From the IMG/VR virus record IMGVR_UViG_3300027842_000001, positions 1-39,045 of that record: a stretch of 39,045 nucleotides of DNA. One strand, written 5' to 3'. Positions 4,108-39,045 of the stretch are shown here, one piece after another. The notes below the pieces were generated by a model, which had not been told where the DNA came from, ran no database searches, and was given only the letters and a program-made list of their open reading frames with translations. The position numbers and the translations under genes are program-made. Numbering within the stretch: the first letter of the stretch is position 1; each line of letters opens with the position of its first letter. The DNA is from a virus.

Positions 4108-4428
4108 CTACCACGATCGCCAACGTCGCCTGCTCGTGTGGTTGGAAGTGCTCACGCCACTATAGGGACGCCACGGCTGCGCGCGGCTCATTGGGACACC
4201 GCCCCGAGCTCGCCAAGGCGCGGCGGCATGGTCGGTGGTTCGACCTGGTGGCTCATTGGGACACCGCCCGTCCGCTACCGCGACATGGCGACGCAGGTCC
4301 TCGGCGCAGTCGGTCGGCACGGCCTCGAGGCGGCGATCGCTGCGGAGCCAGCCGTCGACCAGCTCGGTGGCGGCGCGGTGCTGTTCAAGCAGCGTAAGTC
4401 TGACGGTCGGTGGTTCGACCTGGTGCAT
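4108..4428 (-). CDS. Hypothetical protein, possibly a frameshift fusion of a short gene with degenerate duplicates
   Basis: ATG 4428 overlaps the upstream TAA (TAATG). The ORF reads through junction repeat copies 4 and 3 in two other frames; see findings. Confidence 0.4.
   Translation of the reverse strand: MHQVEPPTVRLTLLEQHRAATELVDGWLRSDRRLEAVPTDCAEDLRRHVAVADGRCPNEPPGRTTDHAAAPWRARGGVPMSRAQPWRPYSGVSTSNHTSRRRWRSW
4188..4206 (-). repeat. Gene-junction repeat, copy 3
   Basis: Identical 19-mer; supplies ATG 4191 of a 27-codon mini-ORF and the stop of a 22-codon mini-ORF. Confidence 0.9.
4253..4270 (-). repeat. Gene-junction repeat, copy 4 (one C/G shorter)
   Basis: 18-mer with G3 instead of G4; supplies ATG 4256. 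Confidence 0.85.
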
Positions 4429-4853
4429 TACTCGGGTACTCCTTCCATGAGCGACGCGGCGAGCGCGTCGGGAATCAACTCATCGGCCCACCAGCGATAG
4501 CAACCGTTGAGAGTTGGGCGCTCGAGGCCAATTAGGGCCAGTTCAGCCGCGGCGACAAACTCGTGGCGCGGTCGACGGACGCGAGCCGCGCGCCTCAGAA
4601 CCTCGGCCGGTGTCCAAAACTCAGCGAGCCAGCTATCCGACTCACTGCCGGCGGCCCCGATTGTCTCGGCGGCGGGCCCGGGGTTGCTCCATGCGGCGCC
4701 GATCGCGTGCGAGCGGACGCGCGTCCACGGGTTCGCGGATCGGCCAACGTAGAGAGCTCGCCCGCGGCCGTCGCGAATCACATACACGCGATGGTCGGCG
4801 GGGATCTCCCCGCGGACCGTGGCGCGGATCTCAGCCAGCGTGTAGCGCTTCAC
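4428..4853 (-). CDS. GIY-YIG domain protein (putative nuclease)
   Basis: GTG 4853 overlaps the recombinase stop (GTGA). VYVIRDGRGRALYVGRSANPWTRVRSH fits GIY-(10-11 aa)-YxG...R...H. Confidence 0.6.
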   Translation of the reverse strand: MKRYTLAEIRATVRGEIPADHRVYVIRDGRGRALYVGRSANPWTRVRSHAIGAAWSNPGPAAETIGAAGSESDSWLAEFWTPAEVLRRAARVRRPRHEFVAAAELALIGLERPTLNGCYRWWADELIPDALAASLMEGVPE

Positions 4854-5512
4854 CACACCACGCCGTCGGCCGTCGCGCGCCGCTCGGGGTTGGCGAGGCG
4901 TAGGTAGATCGCCGTCGTATCGAGGCGCGCGTGGCCGAGCTGCTGCTGCACTTCGGACACCGGCACGCCTTGGCGTATCTGATTGACGGCGGCGCCGTGG
5001 CGGAAGTCACGCGCCGTAACCGGCTGCATGCGGCCGAGCACGTCGACCAGCCACACACCCGCGCGGCTCGAGGCGGCGTTGATGATTCGCCACGCTTGCG
5101 CGCGATGCATCGGGCGGGCGCGCCGGTGGGACTGGCGAGAGCGGAAGTAGTAGCCGTCCCACGGCACCCGCGCATCGACGGCCAGCGCGCGCAACTGCGC
5201 CACCAGGTCGCGTGAGACATAGACCGCCTTACGGGCCGTCGCGCGGCGTTGCTTGAGGTTCGGCAGTCGGAGTGCCCCCTCGTCCTCGTCGACGTCGCAC
5301 GGCCGCAGCCGCAGCACTTCACTGAGGCGCCCGCCCGACTGCCAGAGGGTTTCGAGCAACAGACGGTGAGTCGTCGTCTGCGCGGCGTTCACGATCTTGC
5401 GCGCCTGGTCGCGGGTGACGTACCGCGGCAGCGCGTCGCCGGCAGCCCGTGCGGCGATCGCCGCGGCGGGGCGGCGGGCGATCGCCGTTACGTTTTCCAT
5501 GTAGCGTTGCAC
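4850..5512 (-). CDS. int: Small tyrosine recombinase (XerC/D- or Cre-like catalytic domain only)
   Basis: ETLWQSGGRLSEVLRLR (Arg I), RDFRHGAAV (HxxR), LGHARLDTTAIYLRL (His/Tyr) in canonical order. Only about 220 aa; alternative start ATG 5500. Confidence 0.85.
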   Translation of the reverse strand: MQRYMENVTAIARRPAAAIAARAAGDALPRYVTRDQARKIVNAAQTTTHRLLLETLWQSGGRLSEVLRLRPCDVDEDEGALRLPNLKQRRATARKAVYVSRDLVAQLRALAVDARVPWDGYYFRSRQSHRRARPMHRAQAWRIINAASSRAGVWLVDVLGRMQPVTARDFRHGAAVNQIRQGVPVSEVQQQLGHARLDTTAIYLRLANPERRATADGVVW

Positions 5513-10755: not shown

Positions 10756-10759
<4 letters not shown>

Positions 10760-12189
10760 ACCTGCACCCCCTCGAGGCGAGCGAGCGCCGCCGCGGCGCG
10801 GCGCTCCGCGTCATGCACGTAGGTTTGCGACTGGTCGGCCCCGTAGAAACGACGCCCGAGCTCGATCGCACTCTCGGCGCTGGTGCCGCTGCCGACGAAC
10901 GGATTGACCACCAGGTCGCCGGGCCACGTGTAGAGCTCGACCAGGTTGTCGGGCACGCCCCGCGGCCACGGGCACGGGTGCCGCGAACGGTCGACGTTGT
11001 TCGGGATAAACCAGGCGTTGCGCGTCAGCGCTTTGAACCGCTCACCGTCGATCGACTCGCTATTGCCGTATCGACTGTGCTGGCGCTGGTGGCTCGACTT
11101 GGAGGCGACAAAGATCGGCTCCGCCACCGCGCGAGCAACAGGATTCGCGGGCGAGCCATACGTGCCCCACGCCGTCGACGTGGTGATGGTGTTGGCCGGG
11201 TCGAGTTTGTTTGATTGGCTATTAGCGTCCGCTTCGCCGCTGGTCTTTATCCACGTGAAGCGTTCCCGCGGCAAAAAGCCGATGCGCGACCAGGTGGTCC
11301 ATATGAGACGGTCGATCATCACCGCCCACCCGTCGCCGCCCATCCCGGCGTGCTGGCGTTTGCCGATCCCCTCGAGGCGATAGGGGCGGTGGTGTCGCGC
11401 GCCGTCGCCGTCGCCGCGGCGCCGATCGCCGGCATCGGAGCGCAGCACGTTTGCCAGGTTCACCGCGAAACGGCCGCCTGGCATCAGCACGCGGTAGACC
11501 TCGCGGAAGTGGGGCACGATCAGCTCGTGCCAGTACTCGCGCCAGCTCAGACAGTCGGCCGTCGGATCGTCGTCGTAGGCGACGCCCGCGTTGTAGGGCG
11601 GCGATTCGAGCACCAGCGCCGGGTGTGGACAGGTGGCGTCGTCGCACGGCGCCCCGTGGCGCCGCTCCAGGTGGCCGATGCCATCCTCGAATACCAGCGT
11701 GCGGCAGTCGCGGACCTCGATGCGGCACTCCGCGGGCAGGCCGCCGATCCCGCCTATGTCCGGCACGATTGCCGGACGCCGCGGCGTGCCGGACCGCTGG
11801 AGCTCGCGAATAAGCTCGCGCAGCTCGCGCACGCTCAGGTTGCGCGCCGCCGCCAGGTCGGCCATGTGGCGCCGATCGGCCGCGCCGAGGCGTGCCAGCT
11901 CGACCAGGTGCGACGTGCCGAGCGTTTGGGTCGAGAAACCGTCCAGATCGTCGGCCACCGTCGCCGCGGCCAGCGCGTTATAGACCGAACGCCGCGAGAG
12001 CTCGGGAAAGCGCTCGGCCAGATACGCGCCGAAACTGGCGTACCCCGCCTCGCGATAGACCTCGAGATCTCGAATTTCGACCAGCGCCCGCCCGACGCTC
12101 AAAAAGGCATCCTGACCCGCGCGCACCACCGCCTCGAGCTCGTCGAGGCGCGACGGCGGAGAAACTACAGCTAGTGCCCGCATCACCAC
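10756..12189 (-). CDS. DNA methyltransferase (N4-C/N6-A, beta-class motif order) with N-terminal DNA-binding-like extension
   Basis: LVLESPPYNAG (motif IV, SPPY) precedes NPFVGSGTSAESA (motif I, FxGxG). ATGA overlap with the downstream gene. Start is GTG 12189/12186 or ATG 12183. Confidence 0.9.
11221..11237 (+). repeat. AT-rich 17-mer TTTGATTGGCTATTAGC
   Basis: Read directly; inside the methyltransferase gene. Confidence 0.85.
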
Positions 12190-15910: not shown

Positions 15911-16201
15911 TTACGTGTTCGTTGCGTTGAGTTTTCCGCTGATTTGTGCAGACGTCTGCACAGTCTGACGGCCGCGGCGGGTGTACTGGCGCACCGCGGA
16001 GCGGCGCCGGTCGGCCAGGTCGACCATCTGCCGCAGCGCCTCGGAGCGCGAGCTCGCGCGGTTGTGTGGGTCGGCGTGCCAGGCGTCGATTTTCGCCATC
16101 GTCGCGACGTCGAGCGTGAACGAATAGACGCGCGTCGCCGTCGCGGCCACCGTCGGGCGGCGCCCCGCTCCTGGCCGCCGCCCGCCCCGTTTGGCTTGCA
16201 T
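15911..16201 (-). CDS. Ribbon-helix-helix (CopG/Arc-like) DNA-binding protein
   Basis: RVYSFTLDVATMAKIDAW...SRSEALRQMVDLA fits beta-alpha-alpha. The 3-prime tail contains palindrome copy 15945-15962. Confidence 0.7.
   Translation of the reverse strand: MQAKRGGRRPGAGRRPTVAATATRVYSFTLDVATMAKIDAWHADPHNRASSRSEALRQMVDLADRRRSAVRQYTRRGRQTVQTSAQISGKLNATNT
15945..15962. repeat. 18-bp perfect palindrome TGTGCAGACGTCTGCACA, copy 1
   Basis: Exact; lies in the 3-prime tail of the RHH gene, read as VQTSAQ. Confidence 0.95.
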
Positions 16202-19472: not shown

Positions 19473-20306
19473 GTGGCGACGGGCGATCGACCACGCGCGC
19501 CGGATGGGCGCCGCGGCGGGCCTATCCCTGTCGGTGAACCTGCCGCGGAGGACCGCGACCAGGTGGCCGAGCTGGCCAGGCAGGCGGCCGAGCGCCGCCA
19601 GCGCGAGCTCGAAGAGCAGCAGGCCGCGGCCGAACCCGCGGGCGTGCCGCCGAGTGACGACCAGCGCCAGGCGATCGACGCGCTACGCGATCGCTCGGCC
19701 GAGCTGCGCGCACCAGCAGCTCGAGCGCTGCGCCGCCAGCCGGTCGCGATTGGCACGGTGTACGACGACGAGCGCGAGGACGTCGAGGACCTGCACGCGG
19801 ACGCCCGCGAGGCACGCCTCGACGAGCTCAAAGAGCGCGGCATCGTCGACCCCGCGCTCGAGCACGAATCGGCCGGCTTCGATCCCGAGCTGCCAGGCCT
19901 GCCCGGGCACGAGCTGTACGGCGTCTTTACGTGTCCGAATTGCGGAGCGCCTGTCGAACGGGCCTTCCCCGGCTACGTCGATTGGGACCTCGCCTCGCGC
20001 GACCTGGTCTGCCACCAGTGCGGCGGCCTGGTCAAACGTGGCGGCGCCGCGGCCGAAACGGAAGCCGAAGCCGAGCCCGAGACTGTGCAGACGTCTGCAC
20101 AGACGGCACAGAGCGCACAGACAGGCGAGGCGCTGCCTACCGGCGAACCTGGCACGTACAACCCGCCGCCGCTGAGCGCCGACGAACGCGCCGAGCTCGA
20201 GCAGCTCCGCCGCGAGCGTGCCGAACGTGAGGCGGCGGCCAGCTCGCCACCGCCACCCGAGCCAGCCGCGGAGCAGCAAACAACCGAAGAGCCGCCGAGC
20301 GGGTAG
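19473..20306 (+). CDS. Acidic coiled-coil protein with central zinc ribbon
   Basis: CPNCG...CHQCG; contains palindrome 20084-20101 plus a 9-bp tandem extension. Confidence 0.6.
   Translation: MATGDRPRAPDGRRGGPIPVGEPAAEDRDQVAELARQAAERRQRELEEQQAAAEPAGVPPSDDQRQAIDALRDRSAELRAPAARALRRQPVAIGTVYDDEREDVEDLHADAREARLDELKERGIVDPALEHESAGFDPELPGLPGHELYGVFTCPNCGAPVERAFPGYVDWDLASRDLVCHQCGGLVKRGGAAAETEAEAEPETVQTSAQTAQSAQTGEALPTGEPGTYNPPPLSADERAELEQLRRERAEREAAASSPPPPEPAAEQQTTEEPPSG
20084..20101. repeat. 18-bp palindrome, copy 2
   Basis: Exact; read as VQTSAQ; followed by GCACAGA x3 with 9-bp period (20097, 20106, 20115). Confidence 0.95.
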
Positions 20307-24677: not shown

Positions 24678-24695
24678 TGTGCAGACGTCTGCACA
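24678..24695. repeat. 18-bp palindrome, copy 3
   Basis: Exact; in the intergenic gap 24595-24747. Confidence 0.95.
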
Positions 24696-24747: not shown

Positions 24748-25854
24748 GTGCAGGTAGACGGCCTCGGCGAGCGACCGCTGATTGACTCCGGCGGCTTCCC
24801 GGTGGTGTGGATCGGCGCGGCCGGCTGCACGATCGGCCAGGACCCGAGCCAGGGCGGGACGAATTGCTACGGCCCGGGTGACGTGCTGACGGACGCCGAC
24901 ACCGGCGCGCAGTATCAGATCGGCTCGGACTGGCACGTGCGCCAGCTCGGCGCGGGCGATTCCACCAGCTCGCCACCCGCGGACGCGGCGCCAACCCTGA
25001 GCGATCGGCTGTACTACGTCGATTCGGGCGAGATCATCGAGAAAGACACGTACAGCGACGGATCGGTGACCTACAGCGACACCGGCATGAGCTCGCCGCT
25101 GTCGGACGGCACGGCCTCGGGCAACCCCGCGGACTTGCAGCGCACGAGCTCGTCGACGGGCTCGCCTGACGGGAGCGGCTTTCAGGCCACGAACCCGGGC
25201 GGTGGCTACGGGCCGTATGCGACACCGGATCCGCCGCAGCTCACCGACATGGGCACCTATGTCCAGAATGGCGAGCTCTTCGACCACCAGGTCGACCAGT
25301 ACGGAAACGATTACTACTCAGACCTTGGGCCGGCGCCGCCCGGCAGCGCGCCGTCGCCGCCGATCGCGCAGCACCCCGCGCCAAGTGTGCCCACGCCTCG
25401 AGGCGGCGCAAGCGTTGGAGCCGGTACGGCACCGATCGCCACCACGCCCGCGCCTGGCACCGCTGGCGCGCCCGAACCGACGGCGGCCGATGGACAGCGC
25501 CTCTCAGGTCAGAACGCCGTTACCCAAGCGGCCTACCGCGGACTGTACGGCGCCAATGCCGCCAACGTGTGGGTAGCGCAACATAATGCCGCGATCGGAC
25601 AATCCGCCTCGACCCCACCGTCCGGCGGCGCCCCGAGGCCGAGCGGGGCGCCAACGGCGATCGCTCCGCGCGTGGGCAGCCGCTCGACGACTGGCGGCCC
25701 GGTGACGGTGCCGGGGGACCCGCAGCAGTGGGCGAAGCAACTCATTACGTGGCTGTCGGCGCCGTCCTCGATTGGCCACATGCCGAACGGCGTCCTCGTC
25801 CTCGGCAGTGTCGTCGGCTACTCGATGCTCAAGCGTAGGGGCATGTTCCGGTGA
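24748..25854 (+). CDS. Membrane-anchored virion protein, paralog family member A
   Basis: N-terminal GGFPVVW...QDPSQGGTNCYGPGD domain; EPTAADGQRLS module; C-terminal GPVTVPGDPQQWAKQLITWLSAPSSIGHMPN plus TM. Confidence 0.7.
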   Translation: MQVDGLGERPLIDSGGFPVVWIGAAGCTIGQDPSQGGTNCYGPGDVLTDADTGAQYQIGSDWHVRQLGAGDSTSSPPADAAPTLSDRLYYVDSGEIIEKDTYSDGSVTYSDTGMSSPLSDGTASGNPADLQRTSSSTGSPDGSGFQATNPGGGYGPYATPDPPQLTDMGTYVQNGELFDHQVDQYGNDYYSDLGPAPPGSAPSPPIAQHPAPSVPTPRGGASVGAGTAPIATTPAPGTAGAPEPTAADGQRLSGQNAVTQAAYRGLYGANAANVWVAQHNAAIGQSASTPPSGGAPRPSGAPTAIAPRVGSRSTTGGPVTVPGDPQQWAKQLITWLSAPSSIGHMPNGVLVLGSVVGYSMLKRRGMFR

Positions 25855-29244: not shown

Positions 29245-30228
29245 GTGGGCCTGTTCGACTTCCTGCGGCCGAAGCGTCGACGACGGCGCCGAGCTGTGCA
29301 GACGTCTGCACAACGGCCGCGCTATCGACCTGGTGAACGCGCCAAGCGCTACCTCGAGCGGGTGGCCGAGCTCGAGGACCTCGAGCAGCGGCGACGTGCC
29401 CAAAAACGCACTACGCGGCCCGCTGGACCACGCGCCACACGCGACGACGATCCGACGGTCGAGATTCCGAAGAGCGTCCAGCGCGAAGCCGAGCGCCGAT
29501 TTCAGGCACGCCAGCGGGCCGAGCGCGAGGCGGCCGAGAAACGGCGCCGCCAGGAGATCCGCGAGCGCGAGCGGGCCGCGCGCGGTGAGGCGCGCATGAT
29601 GGCCAGGGCCGAGAAGGCGCGAGCTCGCGCGATCGACGCCTACATGGCGAACGGCGCCACCCGCGCCGAGGCCGAGCAGCTCTACGACCGCGAGCCGGAT
29701 TGGTCAACCTACGACTTCAACCCGCGGCGCCGCGGTGTACGGCATCGCAGCTGGCCACGTCGCCGTACAAACCCGCTGCCGCCCGTGGTGGGCGAGATCG
29801 CTAAGGACGTGCTGAAAGGTGGCCTAATCGCCGCGGCACAGGAAGAGGCCAAAGCCCGATGGCGCGCAGCTCGACGACGTCGCAATCCGGCGCGCCTCGA
29901 GCCGAACCACCCGGACGAAAAACTGCGGGACATGAGCCGTCGGTTTCACGGCCGACCCGATCAAATCCTGCACCTTGACGCGGACCAGCGCCGCCCGCCG
30001 CCGCAGCACGTCGTACTGATCGGCCACGAGCGGGCGACGGTCTATCGCACGCCGCGGAGCTCCGAGCGCTCAGGCGCCGATTGGGAGCACGAGGCGGGCG
30101 ATCGCGGCATGTTGCGGCGCAACGCCAGCGGGCGCCGGATCCTGGTCGCCGACGAGCGCGGCCGGGTGTATCTGCTACAGGGCAGCTCGTCGATGCGATT
30201 CGACCCCGACCAGGGGCTCGTCGGGTGA
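29245..30228 (+). CDS. Arg-rich RRNP-motif protein
   Basis: GTG 29245; palindrome 29295-29312 sits at codons 17-23. An alternative start near GTG 29361 would make the palindrome intergenic. Confidence 0.6.
   Translation: MGLFDFLRPKRRRRRRAVQTSAQRPRYRPGERAKRYLERVAELEDLEQRRRAQKRTTRPAGPRATRDDDPTVEIPKSVQREAERRFQARQRAEREAAEKRRRQEIRERERAARGEARMMARAEKARARAIDAYMANGATRAEAEQLYDREPDWSTYDFNPRRRGVRHRSWPRRRTNPLPPVVGEIAKDVLKGGLIAAAQEEAKARWRAARRRRNPARLEPNHPDEKLRDMSRRFHGRPDQILHLDADQRRPPPQHVVLIGHERATVYRTPRSSERSGADWEHEAGDRGMLRRNASGRRILVADERGRVYLLQGSSSMRFDPDQGLVG
29295..29312. repeat. 18-bp palindrome, copy 4
   Basis: Exact; 55 bp after the stop at 29240; read as VQTSAQ if the gene starts at 29245. Confidence 0.95.
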
Positions 30229-35370: not shown

Positions 35371-35430
35371 CTGGTTACCGTCATATCGCACCGCTGCCGA
35401 ATAGCATACGCACCATATGACAGTAACCAG
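35371..35430. promoter_or_regulatory. 60-bp dyad overlapping the serine recombinase start; candidate attP or autoregulatory operator
   Basis: CTGGTTACCGTCATAT (35371-86) versus ATATGACAGTAACCAG (35415-30): 15/16 complementary, 28-bp spacer. Confidence 0.45.
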
Positions 35431-36862
35431 TGTGCAGACCCGCGCCCGCGCCGGTGTGACCTACGCCGTCGGCGTGATCCGCGTCTCACAGCAAGGCAAG
35501 CGCGAAGCCGAGCGCTTCAAGTCACCGTCTGAGCAGCGCGACCGCATCGCGGCCGAGATCCGCCGCCAGGGCGCCGAGCTGGCGCAGTGTTTCCAAGAGA
35601 TCGACATTTCGGGCAAGCTGCCCCTCGCCAGGCGACACGGCCTCCGCCAAGCGGTCGAGGCGATCGAGGCGGGGCACGCGCGGGTGCTCGTGGTGGCCTA
35701 CTTCGACCGCCTGGTGCGCAATCTGCGCGTTCAGGCCGAAGTCGTACAGCGCGTCGAGGCGGCGGGCGGGCGCGTGCTGGCGCTGGACTTCGGGGAAGTC
35801 ACCGAAAAGACGGCCGCGCAATGGTTGAGCTCGACGCTCATGGGCGCCGTCGCCGAGTACTACGCGCGGTCGGTCGGTGAGCGGCTGGCCAGCACCGCGG
35901 CTATGGCGATCGCCTCGGGCGTGCCGGTGGGCGCGCTGCCGCCTGGCTATCGCCGCGACCCTGCCACCCGCCGCGTGGTGCTGCACGAGGCCGAGGCCGC
36001 GGTGATGCGCGAGGCCTTCGCGATGCGCGCCGACGGCGCCTCCTGGTCGGCCGTTCGCGGCTTCATGGCTGCAAATGGCATTGTTCGGTCGATCGGCAAC
36101 ACGCGGACACTGCTGCACTCGCGTACCTACCTGGGCGAGCTGACGCTCGGCGACGTGGTGAACCCGGGTTCGCATACTCCGCTGGTGGACCTCGAGACGT
36201 TCGAGCGCATCGGCCGCCAGAAAGGCGAGGCCTTCAAAGCGGCGCCCGGGCGCAAATCCGAATTGCTGCTCTCAGGCCTGCGGCTGCTCAGGTGCGCCAC
36301 GTGCGGGCATTCGCTCCTGGCCAGCACACAAACGACGCGCTTCGGTAAATCGTTCAGGTTGTACCGCTGCAATCCGGGCCTGGTCTGCTCGCGGCGCGTG
36401 GCGATCGACGCCGCGCTGGCCGACCAGGCGGTGACCGACTACGTGCGCGAGCTGGTGGCCAACGACGCCGAGACAGAGGGGCCCGGTATGGAGCTGATCG
36501 AGGCGCGGGCCGCGGTGGATGCGGCACAGGCCGCGCTCGATACCGCGATCCGCGGCTACATCGCGGCGGGCGTGCTCGACGAGGCCAGCGCGCAACAGTC
36601 GCTCCGCGAGCTGCGCGAGAAACGCGACGCGGCGGCCGATCGGGCATCGGATCTCGAACGCGCCGCCCGTGCGGTCGGGGACGGCATTACGCTCAACGGC
36701 TCGGCCGATTGGGACGCGCTAACGCTGGCCGATCGACGGGAGATCATTACCGCCGTGCTCGCCCGCGTCGTCGTCGCGCCCGGCGGCGGGAAGGTCCGCG
36801 GCGCCTCGCGGCTGACGTTCGTCACTGTTCGCGACGAGCTCGGCGGCGACGCGCTCGGCTAG
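35417..36862 (+). CDS. int: Large serine recombinase (integrase)
   Basis: N-terminal resolvase domain YAVGVIRVSQQGK (catalytic Ser), recombinase domain, zinc ribbon CATCGHSL...YRCN, coiled-coil tail. Confidence 0.9.
   Translation: MTVTSVQTRARAGVTYAVGVIRVSQQGKREAERFKSPSEQRDRIAAEIRRQGAELAQCFQEIDISGKLPLARRHGLRQAVEAIEAGHARVLVVAYFDRLVRNLRVQAEVVQRVEAAGGRVLALDFGEVTEKTAAQWLSSTLMGAVAEYYARSVGERLASTAAMAIASGVPVGALPPGYRRDPATRRVVLHEAEAAVMREAFAMRADGASWSAVRGFMAANGIVRSIGNTRTLLHSRTYLGELTLGDVVNPGSHTPLVDLETFERIGRQKGEAFKAAPGRKSELLLSGLRLLRCATCGHSLLASTQTTRFGKSFRLYRCNPGLVCSRRVAIDAALADQAVTDYVRELVANDAETEGPGMELIEARAAVDAAQAALDTAIRGYIAAGVLDEASAQQSLRELREKRDAAADRASDLERAARAVGDGITLNGSADWDALTLADRREIITAVLARVVVAPGGGKVRGASRLTFVTVRDELGGDALG
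35431..35439. repeat. Palindrome half-site TGTGCAGAC
   Basis: 9-nt left half at codons 5-8 of the serine recombinase, abutting the dyad. Confidence 0.6.
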
Positions 36863-37016
36863 GATGCGGCGCGCCGCGCGGCGCAGCACCGCCCGCACGC
36901 GAGCGTGAGCGGAGGGTGGCAATGGATCGGCGGCCATGTGTGGCCAGTATGGCGCCGGGGTCCGGTGGGAAACCATCGAAGCCCCGGCGCCTCTCGCGTT
37001 TGAAACGCGATTGTGT

Positions 37017-37034
37017 TGTGCAGACGTCTGCACA
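37017..37034. repeat. 18-bp palindrome, copy 5 (20 bp with flanking T/A)
   Basis: Exact; lies between the convergent recombinase and hydrolase genes. Flanked by palindromes TCGCGTTTGAAACGCGA (36996-37012) and CCGGCGCGCGCCGG (37037-37050). Confidence 0.95.
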
Positions 37035-37144
37035 AACCGGCGCGCGCCGGCGATCGCGCGACGGTCGGGCGGCTGGTCTGCTAGTTTGGCGCGGCTTGTC
37101 GCGGCGGGTGCACCGGGGGCGGGTACACCGTTCCGGCCGCCCGA

Positions 37145-37894
37145 CTAGCCCCCGGCGACGATCGGCGCGAGCAGCGGCGCGTAAGCCGGTCTGAGTAGCG
37201 CCGAGTGATTGGTCCATGCGTCCGACGGGTCCGTCGCCGTGAACACGTAAGGCGTATCGCCAGGGATCTCCTGCTGCACCGGCTGTAGGGCGATATCGAC
37301 CGTGTTGACGACCACCCGCACGTCGACGCCGAGGCCGCGCTCCCACGCCTCGAGCTGGCCAAGATAATCAGACCAGCCCGGCGCGGTGCTGCGGTCGAAA
37401 AGGTCGCTCGCCGCGGGACAGGCGCCGCGCGTGAATGCGTAGCTCAGCAATTCCGTACCGCTGACCCCCTCGAGCGGCGCGTCGATGGGGACCACGCGCT
37501 CGACGAAGCCGGCCAGGTCGGGCGCCGCGGCCAATGCAAACAGGGCGACAACGCCACCGTTCGAGTGGCCGACCAGGATCACGCGGTCGACCTGGTGCTG
37601 CGCGCGGAGCTGCTCGAGGTACATCGCCAGCGCCGCGACCGACTGGCCGAGCGGCTGGCACGAGCCCGCGGCGCCATAGTCAAAGGCGCTGAAATTCGAA
37701 ATGCCACGCGCGCCGAGCTGGTCGGACAGCGGCGTAAAGGCGGCCTGCGTCGAGGCCGCGGTCGAGCCGAGGCCGCCCACGAAAACGACCATTTCGGAAG
37801 GTGCGGCCGCCGCGGGTTGTGCAGACGTCTGCACAAACAGGGCGAGCGCGAGTGTGAGGCCTGCTGGCCAGCTGCGGAACCGTACAAAGCGCAT
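37145..37894 (-). CDS. Secreted alpha/beta-hydrolase (lipase/esterase-like)
   Basis: Signal peptide MRFVRFRSWPAGLTLALALFVQTSAQP; nucleophile elbow VILVGHSNGG (GxSxG); ATG 37894. Confidence 0.8.
   Translation of the reverse strand: MRFVRFRSWPAGLTLALALFVQTSAQPAAAAPSEMVVFVGGLGSTAASTQAAFTPLSDQLGARGISNFSAFDYGAAGSCQPLGQSVAALAMYLEQLRAQHQVDRVILVGHSNGGVVALFALAAAPDLAGFVERVVPIDAPLEGVSGTELLSYAFTRGACPAASDLFDRSTAPGWSDYLGQLEAWERGLGVDVRVVVNTVDIALQPVQQEIPGDTPYVFTATDPSDAWTNHSALLRPAYAPLLAPIVAGG
37818..37835. repeat. 18-bp palindrome, copy 6 (20 bp with flanking T/A)
   Basis: Exact; encodes the VQTSAQ c-region of the hydrolase signal peptide. Confidence 0.95.
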
Positions 37895-38021
37895 GAGGGG
37901 GGCGGGAGATCCTTTCAGGCGAGCGGCAACTCTAGCGCCAAAAACACGAATTGTGTAGGTGCTGCACCGGCGGCGCTCGGCCCACACAATCAAACGCCGC
38001 TCCGGCGGCCGTCTAGCGGAG

Positions 38022-38032
38022 TGTGCAGACGT
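38022..38032. repeat. Palindrome left part TGTGCAGACGT (11 of 18)
   Basis: At the 5-prime edge of the LAGLIDADG ORF. Confidence 0.8.
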
Positions 38033-38418
38033 GCGAAGCTGTCCTAGTGCCACCCTCGCCTACTGATTTGGCGTACCTCGCAGGGCTCATCGACGGCGAG
38101 GGATGTCTTACAGCGAGCCCCGTTTGTCCCCCTCTGCGTTACTGGATGGGGCTGCGTGTGACGACGACAAACGCCGACCTCGCTAGTTGGCTTGAGGAAA
38201 CCTTCGGCGGTCGCATCTACCCGTGGAACCCCCGAGACCGGCGCCGTGCTTACAACTGGACGCTCACGGGTAAACGGGCCGCCGTGATGCTCGAGGCCAC
38301 ACTCCCCTATCTCCGAGTGAAGTCGCGGCCTGCACATGCATGGCTCGCCTTCTGGCGGCTGGCCCCGGCGGCACGTCGAACGGCCGGGGAACTTCGAGCT
38401 GCCATCCGCGCAGCGTAG
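38023..38418 (+). CDS. Single-motif LAGLIDADG homing endonuclease
   Basis: LAYLAGLIDGEGC near the N-terminus, then W.L.G...A..ML..TLPYLRVK, typical of the family; alternative start GTG 38047. Confidence 0.8.
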   Translation: MQTCEAVLVPPSPTDLAYLAGLIDGEGCLTASPVCPPLRYWMGLRVTTTNADLASWLEETFGGRIYPWNPRDRRRAYNWTLTGKRAAVMLEATLPYLRVKSRPAHAWLAFWRLAPAARRTAGELRAAIRAA

Positions 38419-38457
38419 GCGACTCCCCGACGCCCGCCGGGGCGAACGTGCAGACGT
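38033..38457 (+). mobile_element. Candidate 425-bp insertion carrying the LAGLIDADG gene, flanked by 10-bp direct repeats GTGCAGACGT
   Basis: Deleting 38033-38457 in silico restores a perfect TGTGCAGACGTCTGCACA. Confidence 0.4.
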
Positions 38458-38464
38458 CTGCACA
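38448..38464. repeat. Palindrome copy 7 (17 of 18; outer T replaced by C)
   Basis: 30 bp after the LAGLIDADG stop, 23 bp before the holin-like ATG. Confidence 0.9.
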
Positions 38465-38486
38465 ACCGGCCTACTCCGGGCGCGGT

Positions 38487-38792
38487 ATGCCCGAGCCGAT
38501 CGACGATCCGAGCGCCCCTAAACCGTGGTGGCAGTCCAAGACCGTTTGGCTCAACGGCGTGCTGACGGTGATTGGGGTCGGGAGTTTCTTCGCCGAGCCC
38601 CATAACGACCCGTCGCTCACGGTGGCCAGCATCTCGGCGGCGGTGGTCGGCGTCGGCAATGTGCTGCTGCGCGTGTGGTTCACGTCGGCGCCGATCGCGG
38701 GCACCGGGCGGGCTTACAGCGCAATGGCGGCGCAAGCCGAACGGATCGGCCGCGCGGTCGCGCAAATCCAGACCAGCGGAGGCAAGCGATAA
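38487..38792 (+). CDS. Holin-like membrane protein (101 aa, two TM segments)
   Basis: ATG 38487; VWLNGVLTVIGVGSFF and LTVASISAAVVGVGNVLLRVWF; TAA abuts the endolysin ATG. Confidence 0.6.
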   Translation: MPEPIDDPSAPKPWWQSKTVWLNGVLTVIGVGSFFAEPHNDPSLTVASISAAVVGVGNVLLRVWFTSAPIAGTGRAYSAMAAQAERIGRAVAQIQTSGGKR

Positions 38793-39045
38793 ATGCGCCG
38801 CGGCTTTGACGTGTCCAACTGGACCGGCGCGCCTGACAGTCGATGGGATGCGCTCAACCAGGGCGGCCCGGGGGTGCTCTTCGTACAGTCGATCGACCCG
38901 CCCGCGGGTTACCCGCCGGGGGTCACCGCGCAACAAATCCAATGGGGCCTCGACAACGGTTGGGACGTCGTCGCGTATCTCTGGAAGTGGTTTAGCCTCG
39001 GCCTCGACGACACGCAGCGCAAACTCGATTTACTCGAGCCGTTCA
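38793..39045 (+). CDS. Endolysin-like glycoside hydrolase, N-terminal part (continues at base 128 of the window)
   Basis: ATG 38793 directly after the holin-like TAA; MRRGFDVSNWTGAPD; in frame through the overlap. Confidence 0.65.
   Translation, partial: MRRGFDVSNWTGAPDSRWDALNQGGPGVLFVQSIDPPAGYPPGVTAQQIQWGLDNGWDVVAYLWKWFSLGLDDTQRKLDLLEPF
38919..39045. repeat. Terminal direct overlap, identical to 1..127
   Basis: Read directly from the sequence. Confidence 0.95.

Follow-up and report, generated by a model that had tools for sequence, protein, structure and literature searches.

A LAGLIDADG endonuclease gene within one copy of a dispersed phage palindrome, probably inserted as a mobile homing gene

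The endonuclease locus

A stretch of viral DNA of 39,045 nucleotides (IMG/VR record IMGVR_UViG_3300027842_000001, positions 1 to 39,045; hereafter, the window) carries a small gene for a single-motif LAGLIDADG protein inside a split copy of an 18-bp palindrome. The gene occupies positions 38023-38418 of the plus strand and encodes 131 aa from a GTG start, or 123 aa if GTG 38047 is used. It lies in the divergent spacer between the gene of a secreted alpha/beta-hydrolase on the left (37145-37894, minus strand) and a holin-lysin cassette on the right, which consists of a holin-like gene (101 aa; 38487-38792, plus strand) followed directly by a lysin gene (from 38793) whose remote homologs are GH25 enzymes. 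Because the endonuclease gene is oriented in the same direction as the lysis genes, it could be transcribed with them without any coding disruption. A search of Rfam yielded no group I intron match at the gene, which is free-standing, neither intron- nor intein-borne, and present in a single copy in the genome.

The window begins and ends with the same 127 bp (positions 1-127 and 38919-39045), and the lysin gene (38793...804) spans their junction. It thus corresponds to the complete, circularly permuted genome (~38,918 bp) of a temperate soil phage (~38.9 kb), and identical assemblies of this phage are available from several soil data sets (JGI, ENA, Logan and NCBI). A sequencing-adapter or assembly artefact was ruled out by these identical assemblies and by the occurrence of the palindrome at the same positions in independent isolate genomes.

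The left half-copy of the split palindrome, TGTGCAGACGT (38022-38032), contains GTG 38023, the start assigned to the open reading frame (ORF) by gene callers, and diverges thereafter (GCGAAGC...). The right copy, CGTGCAGACGTCTGCACA (38447-38464), matches the palindrome at 17 of 18 positions, with an intact 16-bp core (38448-38463), and is located 22 bp 5' of the holin ATG and only 29 bp from the stop codon of the endonuclease ORF. Direct reading and exact searches confirmed what an earlier note on this DNA had described at the two borders: the 10-bp direct repeat GTGCAGACGT is present at 38023-38032 and 38448-38457, on either side of the insert, and deletion of 38033-38457 restores a perfect 18-bp palindrome, TGTGCAGACGTCTGCACA. 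The deleted 425 bp correspond to the segment that is inserted (plus strand) relative to relatives lacking the homing-endonuclease gene (HEG), with the exact boundary being ambiguous within the 10-bp repeat. Perfect 11-nt inverted arms with the central ACGT as their overlap border the insert, TGTGCAGACGT on the left and ACGTCTGCACA (38454-38464) on the right.

In an exact search of the window, the 10-mer TGTGCAGACG was found outside the full copies at 38022 only, and by our own arithmetic, the chance expectation for such an 11-mer is ~0.02 in 39 kb, both strands included. For full palindromes, seven matches were obtained at three or fewer mismatches, against 0.02 expected from shuffles. Direct repeats of 10 bp are, as such, not rare in DNA of 70% GC, and three unrelated ones occur within 900 bp of the phage contig that encodes the closest homolog of the endonuclease (L119, see below); the repeat at the insertion is significant because it is half of this specific palindrome and because of the comparison with relatives. 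Among the features of a transposition event with target-site duplication, we found the direct repeat, whereas the palindrome halves are the only inverted repeats at the ends of the insert, and a transposase is absent, the LAGLIDADG protein being the sole ORF of the insert.

Relatives without the gene and the empty site

Relatives of the phage were identified by a protein search with the neighbouring lysin followed by contig look-ups. Searches for related loci with the hydrolase or the holin detected no relatives in viral or metagenome contigs, and a blastn search with positions 36800-39045 against phage records gave no match. Orthology of the insertion site is set by a conserved flank of ~20 bp, CTCCGGCGGCCGTCTAGCGGAG (38000-38021), which precedes the palindrome position in the window and in the relatives L220/L221, L218 and L271.

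The ORF is absent from all four related lineages. In L220/L221, the closest of these (lysin 76% identical), the region reads ...CTCCGGCGGGCGCCTAACGGAG-TGTGCAGACGTCTGCGTG-AACGCCTACCCC...ATG(holin), with the palindrome uninterrupted and matching at 15 of 18 positions, and the reconstructed empty site of the window aligns with it base for base from the ~20-bp flank across the palindrome and into the start of the holin gene. The earlier note had claimed that the ORF was inserted into a copy of the palindrome and had proposed a search of relatives for an intact copy in the hydrolase-holin spacer; L220/L221 carries such a copy, TGTGCAGACGTCTGCGTG, at the orthologous position, which bears out the insertion. 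The flank, the hydrolase and the holin are also all present in L271 (lysin 62%) and in L218/L219 (lysin 55%; a syntenic genome of 39,176 bp), where the palindrome is degenerate, and in L269/270 (lysin 49%) TGTGTAGACGTCTGGACA is found ~100 bp 5' of the holin gene. We also considered that the spacer of L218 (CGTGCGAGGC...CTTCGAG...GCGCAGC) could be a deletion remnant of the gene, which was ruled out, given that 59 of 300 shuffles reached the same alignment score.

The composition of the endonuclease gene is foreign to the genome, with a GC content at third codon positions (GC3) of 0.67, compared with 0.79-0.86 in 16 resident genes, a mark of recent foreign arrival. Given this composition and the count of four lineages without the HEG against one with it, gain of the gene in the window lineage would be the economical reading of the sequence comparison. 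The locus is a real insertion of a free-standing and probably mobile HEG.

A variant of the phage locus, L125, is 98.8% identical to the window. It shows 17 differences over 1461 bp, yet an 895-bp tract (37849-38743) with the endonuclease gene at its centre is free of them. In the hydrolase gene, immediately to the left of this clean tract, 14 substitutions plus a 3-bp insertion are crowded within ~200 bp; if divergence were uniform, so clean a stretch would have a probability of ~3e-5. Such a tract, seen here in one variant, would be expected for co-conversion around a homing event.

An additional contig of 801 bp (L118, ENA k141_41003) is identical to window positions 37803-38500 and then unrelated. 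Within the identical part lie the hydrolase gene start, the endonuclease gene with the two pieces of the palindrome, and 14 bp from the 5' end of the holin gene. This contig could be a recombinant variant or an assembly chimera.

The inserted gene encodes an I-CreI-like protein

The protein, with the motif LAYLAGLIDGEG, is a genuine single-motif LAGLIDADG protein of the homodimeric I-CreI/I-MsoI type. In phmmer searches against the PDB, it matched I-MsoI (E 4e-6 over residues 12-122) and also I-CreI, and it matched phrog_5046 with an E-value of 6.5e-19. The structural model obtained with AlphaFold2 (AF2; pLDDT 88.5) has an alpha-beta-beta-alpha-beta-beta-alpha core (helices 13-26, 51-61 and 83-96; strands 27-34, 39-48, 64-68 and 76-82), and the top Foldseek matches of this model, with TM-scores of ~0.7, were I-CreI (E 3.7e-7, TM 0.68-0.70), I-MsoI and I-CvuI. 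The single-motif LAGLIDADG identity that the earlier note had assigned from the letters alone is supported by the PDB and phrog_5046 matches, the predicted fold and the Foldseek results. NCBIfam yielded no match for the ORF, and some of its homologs carry PF00961 or PF14528.

An alignment of 33 sequences revealed the invariant motif DLAYLAGLIDGEG and a block LPYLRVK. Glu26, which aligns with the Asp of the GDG of I-MsoI and occupies the position of the catalytic Asp of I-CreI, is nearly invariant in the 33 homologs, and Lys100, equivalent to K98 of I-CreI, is conserved in the family. Nuclease activity of the product is putative, and given that I-CreI, I-MsoI and I-CvuI are the best matches, dimeric action on a pseudo-palindrome of ~22 bp would be expected.

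Among homologs of the endonuclease, P0002 is the closest (44% identity); it is encoded on L119, a contig of a phage with 72% GC, where it adjoins portal and capsid genes. As a candidate parallel case, this context was rejected, no comparable split palindrome being present there. An unrelated, imperfect palindrome of 28 bp, GCGGCGGTCTTCTGCAGAAGATCGCGGC (L119 5946-5973), is located ~30 bp 5' of the P0002 gene.

The palindrome in this genome and in other elements

In addition to the split copy, the window contains six perfect palindromes. One is located at 15945-15962 and another at 20084-20101, inside the gene 19473-20306, where it is read as VQTSAQ in a low-complexity linker. The copy at 24678-24695 is intergenic, 53 bp 5' of the gene 24748-25854, and that at 29295-29312 coincides with the called start (GTG 29296) of the gene 29296-30228, the L218 ortholog of which has a near-copy at its 5' side. 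The remaining two lie close to the endonuclease locus: one at 37017-37034, in the spacer that separates the convergent serine integrase and hydrolase genes, and one at 37818-37835, in the signal-peptide region of the hydrolase, again read as VQTSAQ. The HEG-less L218 contains three perfect palindromes and several near-copies, with a cluster of copies in the same integrase-hydrolase spacer.

That spacer (36863-37144) is rich in dyads: besides the palindrome at 37017, it contains GGCGCGCGCC and, at 36994-37010, a hairpin resembling a terminator. Its equivalent in L218 (8386-8748) contains one perfect palindrome, one with two mismatches and two copies of GCGCCGGCGTCTGCAC. Elsewhere in L218, in-frame copies at 2024 and 2141, 117 bp apart, flank a segment of ~39 aa that is missing from the window ortholog 29296-30228. 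It is possible that the palindromes are tiny selfish insertions.

Beyond these phages, the exact 18-mer was identified in at least 117 IMG/VR stretches (L001-L117), a lower bound given by the viral listing, and in 88 stretches of species-representative genomes (L130-L217), compared with ~9 expected by chance in 596 Gb of genomes (our own arithmetic). What other phages conserve is a 16-bp core, GTGCAGACGTCTGCAC, whereas the outer bases vary. The hosts are mainly prophages of Oxalobacteraceae and other Burkholderiales, and the others include Ruminococcus (38% GC), Phycisphaerae, Alpha- and Deltaproteobacteria, Bacteroidota and Acidobacteria metagenome-assembled genomes (MAGs). The palindrome-bearing stretches range from 30% to 70% GC and have unrelated flanks, often with several copies per element, multi-copy cases beyond the Burkholderiales including a Ruminococcus MAG, a Phycisphaerae MAG, an alphaproteobacterial MAG and others. 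A host repeat of the repetitive extragenic palindrome (REP) or uptake-sequence type was ruled out by the occurrence of only 88 stretches in 596 Gb of genomes, with few copies per genome, and in the literature searched, the palindrome string had no match.

In 136 of the 215 distinct contexts, no long ORF runs across the palindrome, so that the copies are enriched in intergenic DNA. Within long ORFs (at least 300 codons), the VQTSAQ frame is favoured, with 43 copies against 19 and 17 in the other frames, and these VQTSAQ copies often fall in Pro/Ala/Arg-rich linkers or in a signal peptide. In a pair of otherwise identical contexts (L092 7539-7580 and L044 4131), the difference is an insertion of ~15 bp in which one half of the palindrome is repeated (…TCTGCACAAGATCCGTCTGCACAGGATC…), a hint of slippage or template switching at palindromes.

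The palindrome family is independent of the endonuclease. No endonuclease homolog was detected with tblastn or a profile hidden Markov model in the 205 palindrome loci listed (1.59 Mb), and no palindrome was present in 27 viral loci encoding endonuclease homologs (28-44% identity) or on the P0002 contig. Most likely, the palindrome is an older, independent cis-element and not a decoy made for the enzyme.

Links of the palindrome to ParB-like proteins

In all 26 loci of one prophage group (among L009-L202), the palindrome is located ~20-1,150 bp 5' of a gene for a protein of ~700-780 aa with ParB_N and HTH_ParB domains, and in about half of these loci, a second palindrome lies inside the gene (for example, L090 11161-13920). 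The window encodes a 477-aa protein (10756-12189, minus strand) in which an N-terminal DUF3102/ParB-HTH-like domain (aa 18-132; HTH, helix-turn-helix) is fused to an N6/N4 DNA methyltransferase. In phmmer searches, this domain was the only segment of the window with homologs in unrelated palindrome-bearing elements, namely in three lineages: L101; L173, where the gene adjoins parA; and L014/L019/L021/L091. Pairwise, the domain matched a Ruminococcus protein encoded beside parA with an E-value of 4e-13, and this protein itself weakly matches DUF3102 as well as the PF49 partition family of Borrelia. Furthermore, in L101, L173 and L161, the palindrome is located inside the DUF3102-like gene, at the same codons (EFVQTSAQIG), with all 18 bases conserved while neighbouring synonymous sites differ.

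The 477-aa protein could be a candidate for a factor that binds the palindrome and protects its own genome. No protein common to all palindrome loci was found: tblastn screens, which proved less sensitive than blastp or phmmer, were empty, and Pfam revealed no domain shared among 131 ORFs of diverse loci. Our best guess from these sequence comparisons, offered only as a lead, is that the palindrome may be a parS- or operator-like binding site of a dimeric phage DNA-binding protein.

Origin of the insertion and role of the palindrome

With moderate confidence, we favour the explanation that a homing gene inserted in one pre-existing copy of the palindrome and spread by homing, the palindromes being an independent cis-element. 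Under this scenario, a gene of the I-CreI/I-MsoI type entered the copy of the dispersed palindrome located just 5' of the holin-lysin cassette. Its spread would most likely proceed by homing: where a co-infecting relative has an intergenic allele without the HEG, the enzyme would cleave that allele, and repair templated by the HEG-carrying genome would transfer the gene along with flanking DNA of a few hundred bp.

Several observations weigh against this explanation. The ORF had no match in Pfam, LAGLIDADG_1 and LAGLIDADG_3 included, at E<=0.1. With its 131 aa, it is the shortest of the 33 family members and ends ~22 residues before its closest homolog P0002; because of this short C-terminal region, the enzyme may be inactive. 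According to the title of PDB entry 2o7m, the C-terminal loop of I-CreI is required for binding and cleavage. An empty site with identical flanks (CGGCCGTCTAGCGGAG-N(8-38)-ACCGGCCTACTCCGGG) had 0 matches in metagenome and genome contigs. The pattern in L125 could have arisen by ordinary recombination. As for the parS-like reading of the palindrome, which is a lead, no palindrome was found around 19 viral loci with a DUF3102-like domain, in stretches reaching up to 10 kb on each side. Finally, the 10-bp flanking repeat is left unexplained by homing or by a LAGLIDADG cut: the 4-nt 3' overhang of these enzymes would account only for the central ACGT, and the 10-bp duplication is accordingly not a LAGLIDADG product.

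The earlier note had gone further and proposed that the palindrome itself is the homing site, with the other copies being potential targets or decoys. Single-motif LAGLIDADG enzymes, such as I-CreI and I-MsoI, are homodimers that act on (pseudo)palindromes of ~22 bp and leave 4-nt 3' overhangs, and homing normally destroys the target site. If the 18-bp palindrome were the recognition and cleavage site, it would be cut at the central ACGT, the other copies would be further targets, and the copies of the phage itself would be shielded, for example by a protein bound to them or by the 10756-12189 product, in which an N6/N4 methyltransferase is joined with a ParB-HTH-like domain. Several points fit this proposal: the enzyme class, supported here by the fold match to I-CreI and I-MsoI, acts as a dimer on palindromic sites, the insertion lies inside a palindrome copy whose counterpart in relatives is uninterrupted, the left copy stops exactly at the predicted top-strand cut (TGTGCAGACGT|), and the two arms overlap by ACGT. 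A constrained cis-element is also the type of target favoured by homing endonucleases, the conversion-like tract of L125 is centred on the site, and a DNA methyltransferase is encoded in the genome.

However, the site survives the insertion. The 38448-38463 core next to the gene is undamaged, and the same genome retains six perfect copies, such that an enzyme satisfied by the 16-bp core would cut its own genome seven times; if active, the enzyme must therefore recognise more, and its recognition sequence must include unique flanking bases or nearby sequence. The survival of a nearly intact site, which the earlier note had mentioned as a caveat, is borne out and is now the central weakness of its proposal. 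Moreover, no second copy of the gene is found at any other palindrome, the palindromes persist without the gene in the HEG-less relatives and in more than 200 loci (the 205 listed), the 27 loci encoding homologs and the P0002 contig have no palindrome, and six of the duplicated bases (GTGCAG) would be left over by a cut at ACGT. For the proposal to hold, the enzyme would have to tell sites apart by their outermost bases or by their flanks, or the phage would have to protect itself, and methylation shielding is pure conjecture. In the simple form in which it was put forward, we consider the palindrome on balance an unlikely target of the enzyme.

A different route to the same arrangement would be recombination at the palindrome through the 10-bp core GTGCAGACGT, either site-specific or by microhomology, which would leave attL/attR-like borders, with the gene being passive or decaying cargo and the palindromes serving as junctions for the shuffling of gene cassettes. 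A 10-bp direct repeat with one hybrid and one near-complete site is the geometry of a crossover within a core. Palindromes are also located at mosaic boundaries between the window and L218, for instance 5' of the gene 29296 and beside a gene that differs between the phages, the two in-frame copies in L218 flank a segment that the window ortholog does not have, the endonuclease ORF is short at its C-terminal end, and the phage encodes both a small tyrosine recombinase (216 aa; 4850-5500, minus strand) and a serine integrase (481 aa; 35417-36862). Yet no recombinase is known to act on this palindrome, and a genome with several such sites would be prone to deletions and inversions. A pair of a half-copy and a full copy occurs only once in the window, solo half-copies elsewhere enclose no genes, and the insert, as noted above, carries neither terminal inverted repeats of its own nor a transposase. 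This explanation too appears doubtful to us.

A bolder combination of these elements seems improbable, and we mention it for what it would imply: the nuclease might recognise a parS- or operator-like palindrome of 16-18 bp that is common to unrelated phages across phyla, while the host phage would shield its seven copies, for example via the methyltransferase fusion. If so, the gene would be a homing element or an inter-phage weapon exploiting a widely shared, constrained regulatory site.

LAGLIDADG-fold domains are used for DNA binding in WhiA. A WhiA-like role, in which a domesticated, non-cutting protein would bind the palindromes as a regulator, is very improbable: a dimeric fold would suit a perfect dyad, the protein is shortened, and several of the seven sites in the genome are 5' of genes, but the syntenic L218 (20.9 kb examined) keeps its palindromes without the gene, the L220 and L269/270 junction alleles retain near-copies at this position, more than 200 other palindrome loci have no homolog, the foreign GC3 and presence in a single lineage indicate a recent arrival and not a core regulator, and the catalytic Glu and Lys are retained.

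Directly after the tyrosine recombinase gene, a 141-aa ORF (4428-4853, minus strand) shows a weak GIY-YIG nuclease motif (Pfam E 7.8e-4), and is possibly a second nuclease or mobile gene.

Comparison with known systems

Free-standing homing endonucleases are common in phages. As in the intronless homing of the seg and mob genes of phage T4, a small nuclease gene is located here between conserved genes, is co-oriented with its neighbours and is present in one lineage only, an identity tract surrounds the gene in a diverged variant (L125 in our case), and the target need not be split. In contrast to the T4 enzymes, which are of the GIY-YIG or HNH type, the window enzyme belongs to the LAGLIDADG class, and its gene interrupts one palindrome of a dispersed family, with a 10-bp repeat on both sides. 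A paper with the title 'Nuclease genes occupy boundaries of genetic exchange between bacteriophages' (PMC10448857) bears on such free-standing genes.

I-CreI, I-MsoI and I-CvuI are homodimeric enzymes encoded in group I introns of green-algal chloroplast 23S rDNA. The window protein shares with them the fold, the single LAGLIDADG motif with its terminal acidic residue and a Lys equivalent to K98. Unlike the genes of these enzymes, that in the window is free-standing and intergenic; the protein is ~22-24% identical to them, comprises 131 aa compared with 163-170 and is without the region of the C-terminal loop and helix, and the putative site survives the insertion. The endonuclease gene is a clean natural case, with a filled and an empty allele, of the compact and engineerable I-CreI class, and its natural site is possibly a perfect palindrome, a property of value in meganuclease work should cleavage be confirmed.

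Dispersed cis-elements in other replicons include parS/KorB operator sites, the stoperators of mycobacteriophages and the PeSL cassettes of T4-type phages. The palindrome resembles these in being a short, conserved site that is present in several copies per genome, mostly intergenic and in some cases intragenic. With parS in particular, it shares a perfect 16-bp dyad and copies in or beside parB-like genes, one of them inside the gene of a ParB analog adjoining parA. Its sequence is unlike that of chromosomal parS, and in contrast to parS-type elements, the palindrome phages have no detectable protein in common save for a weakly related HTH domain. Conserved base for base across phages and prophages of Proteobacteria, Firmicutes, Planctomycetes and others, this cross-phylum palindrome family is a more unusual object than the endonuclease gene, and its putative binding protein is now open to direct search.

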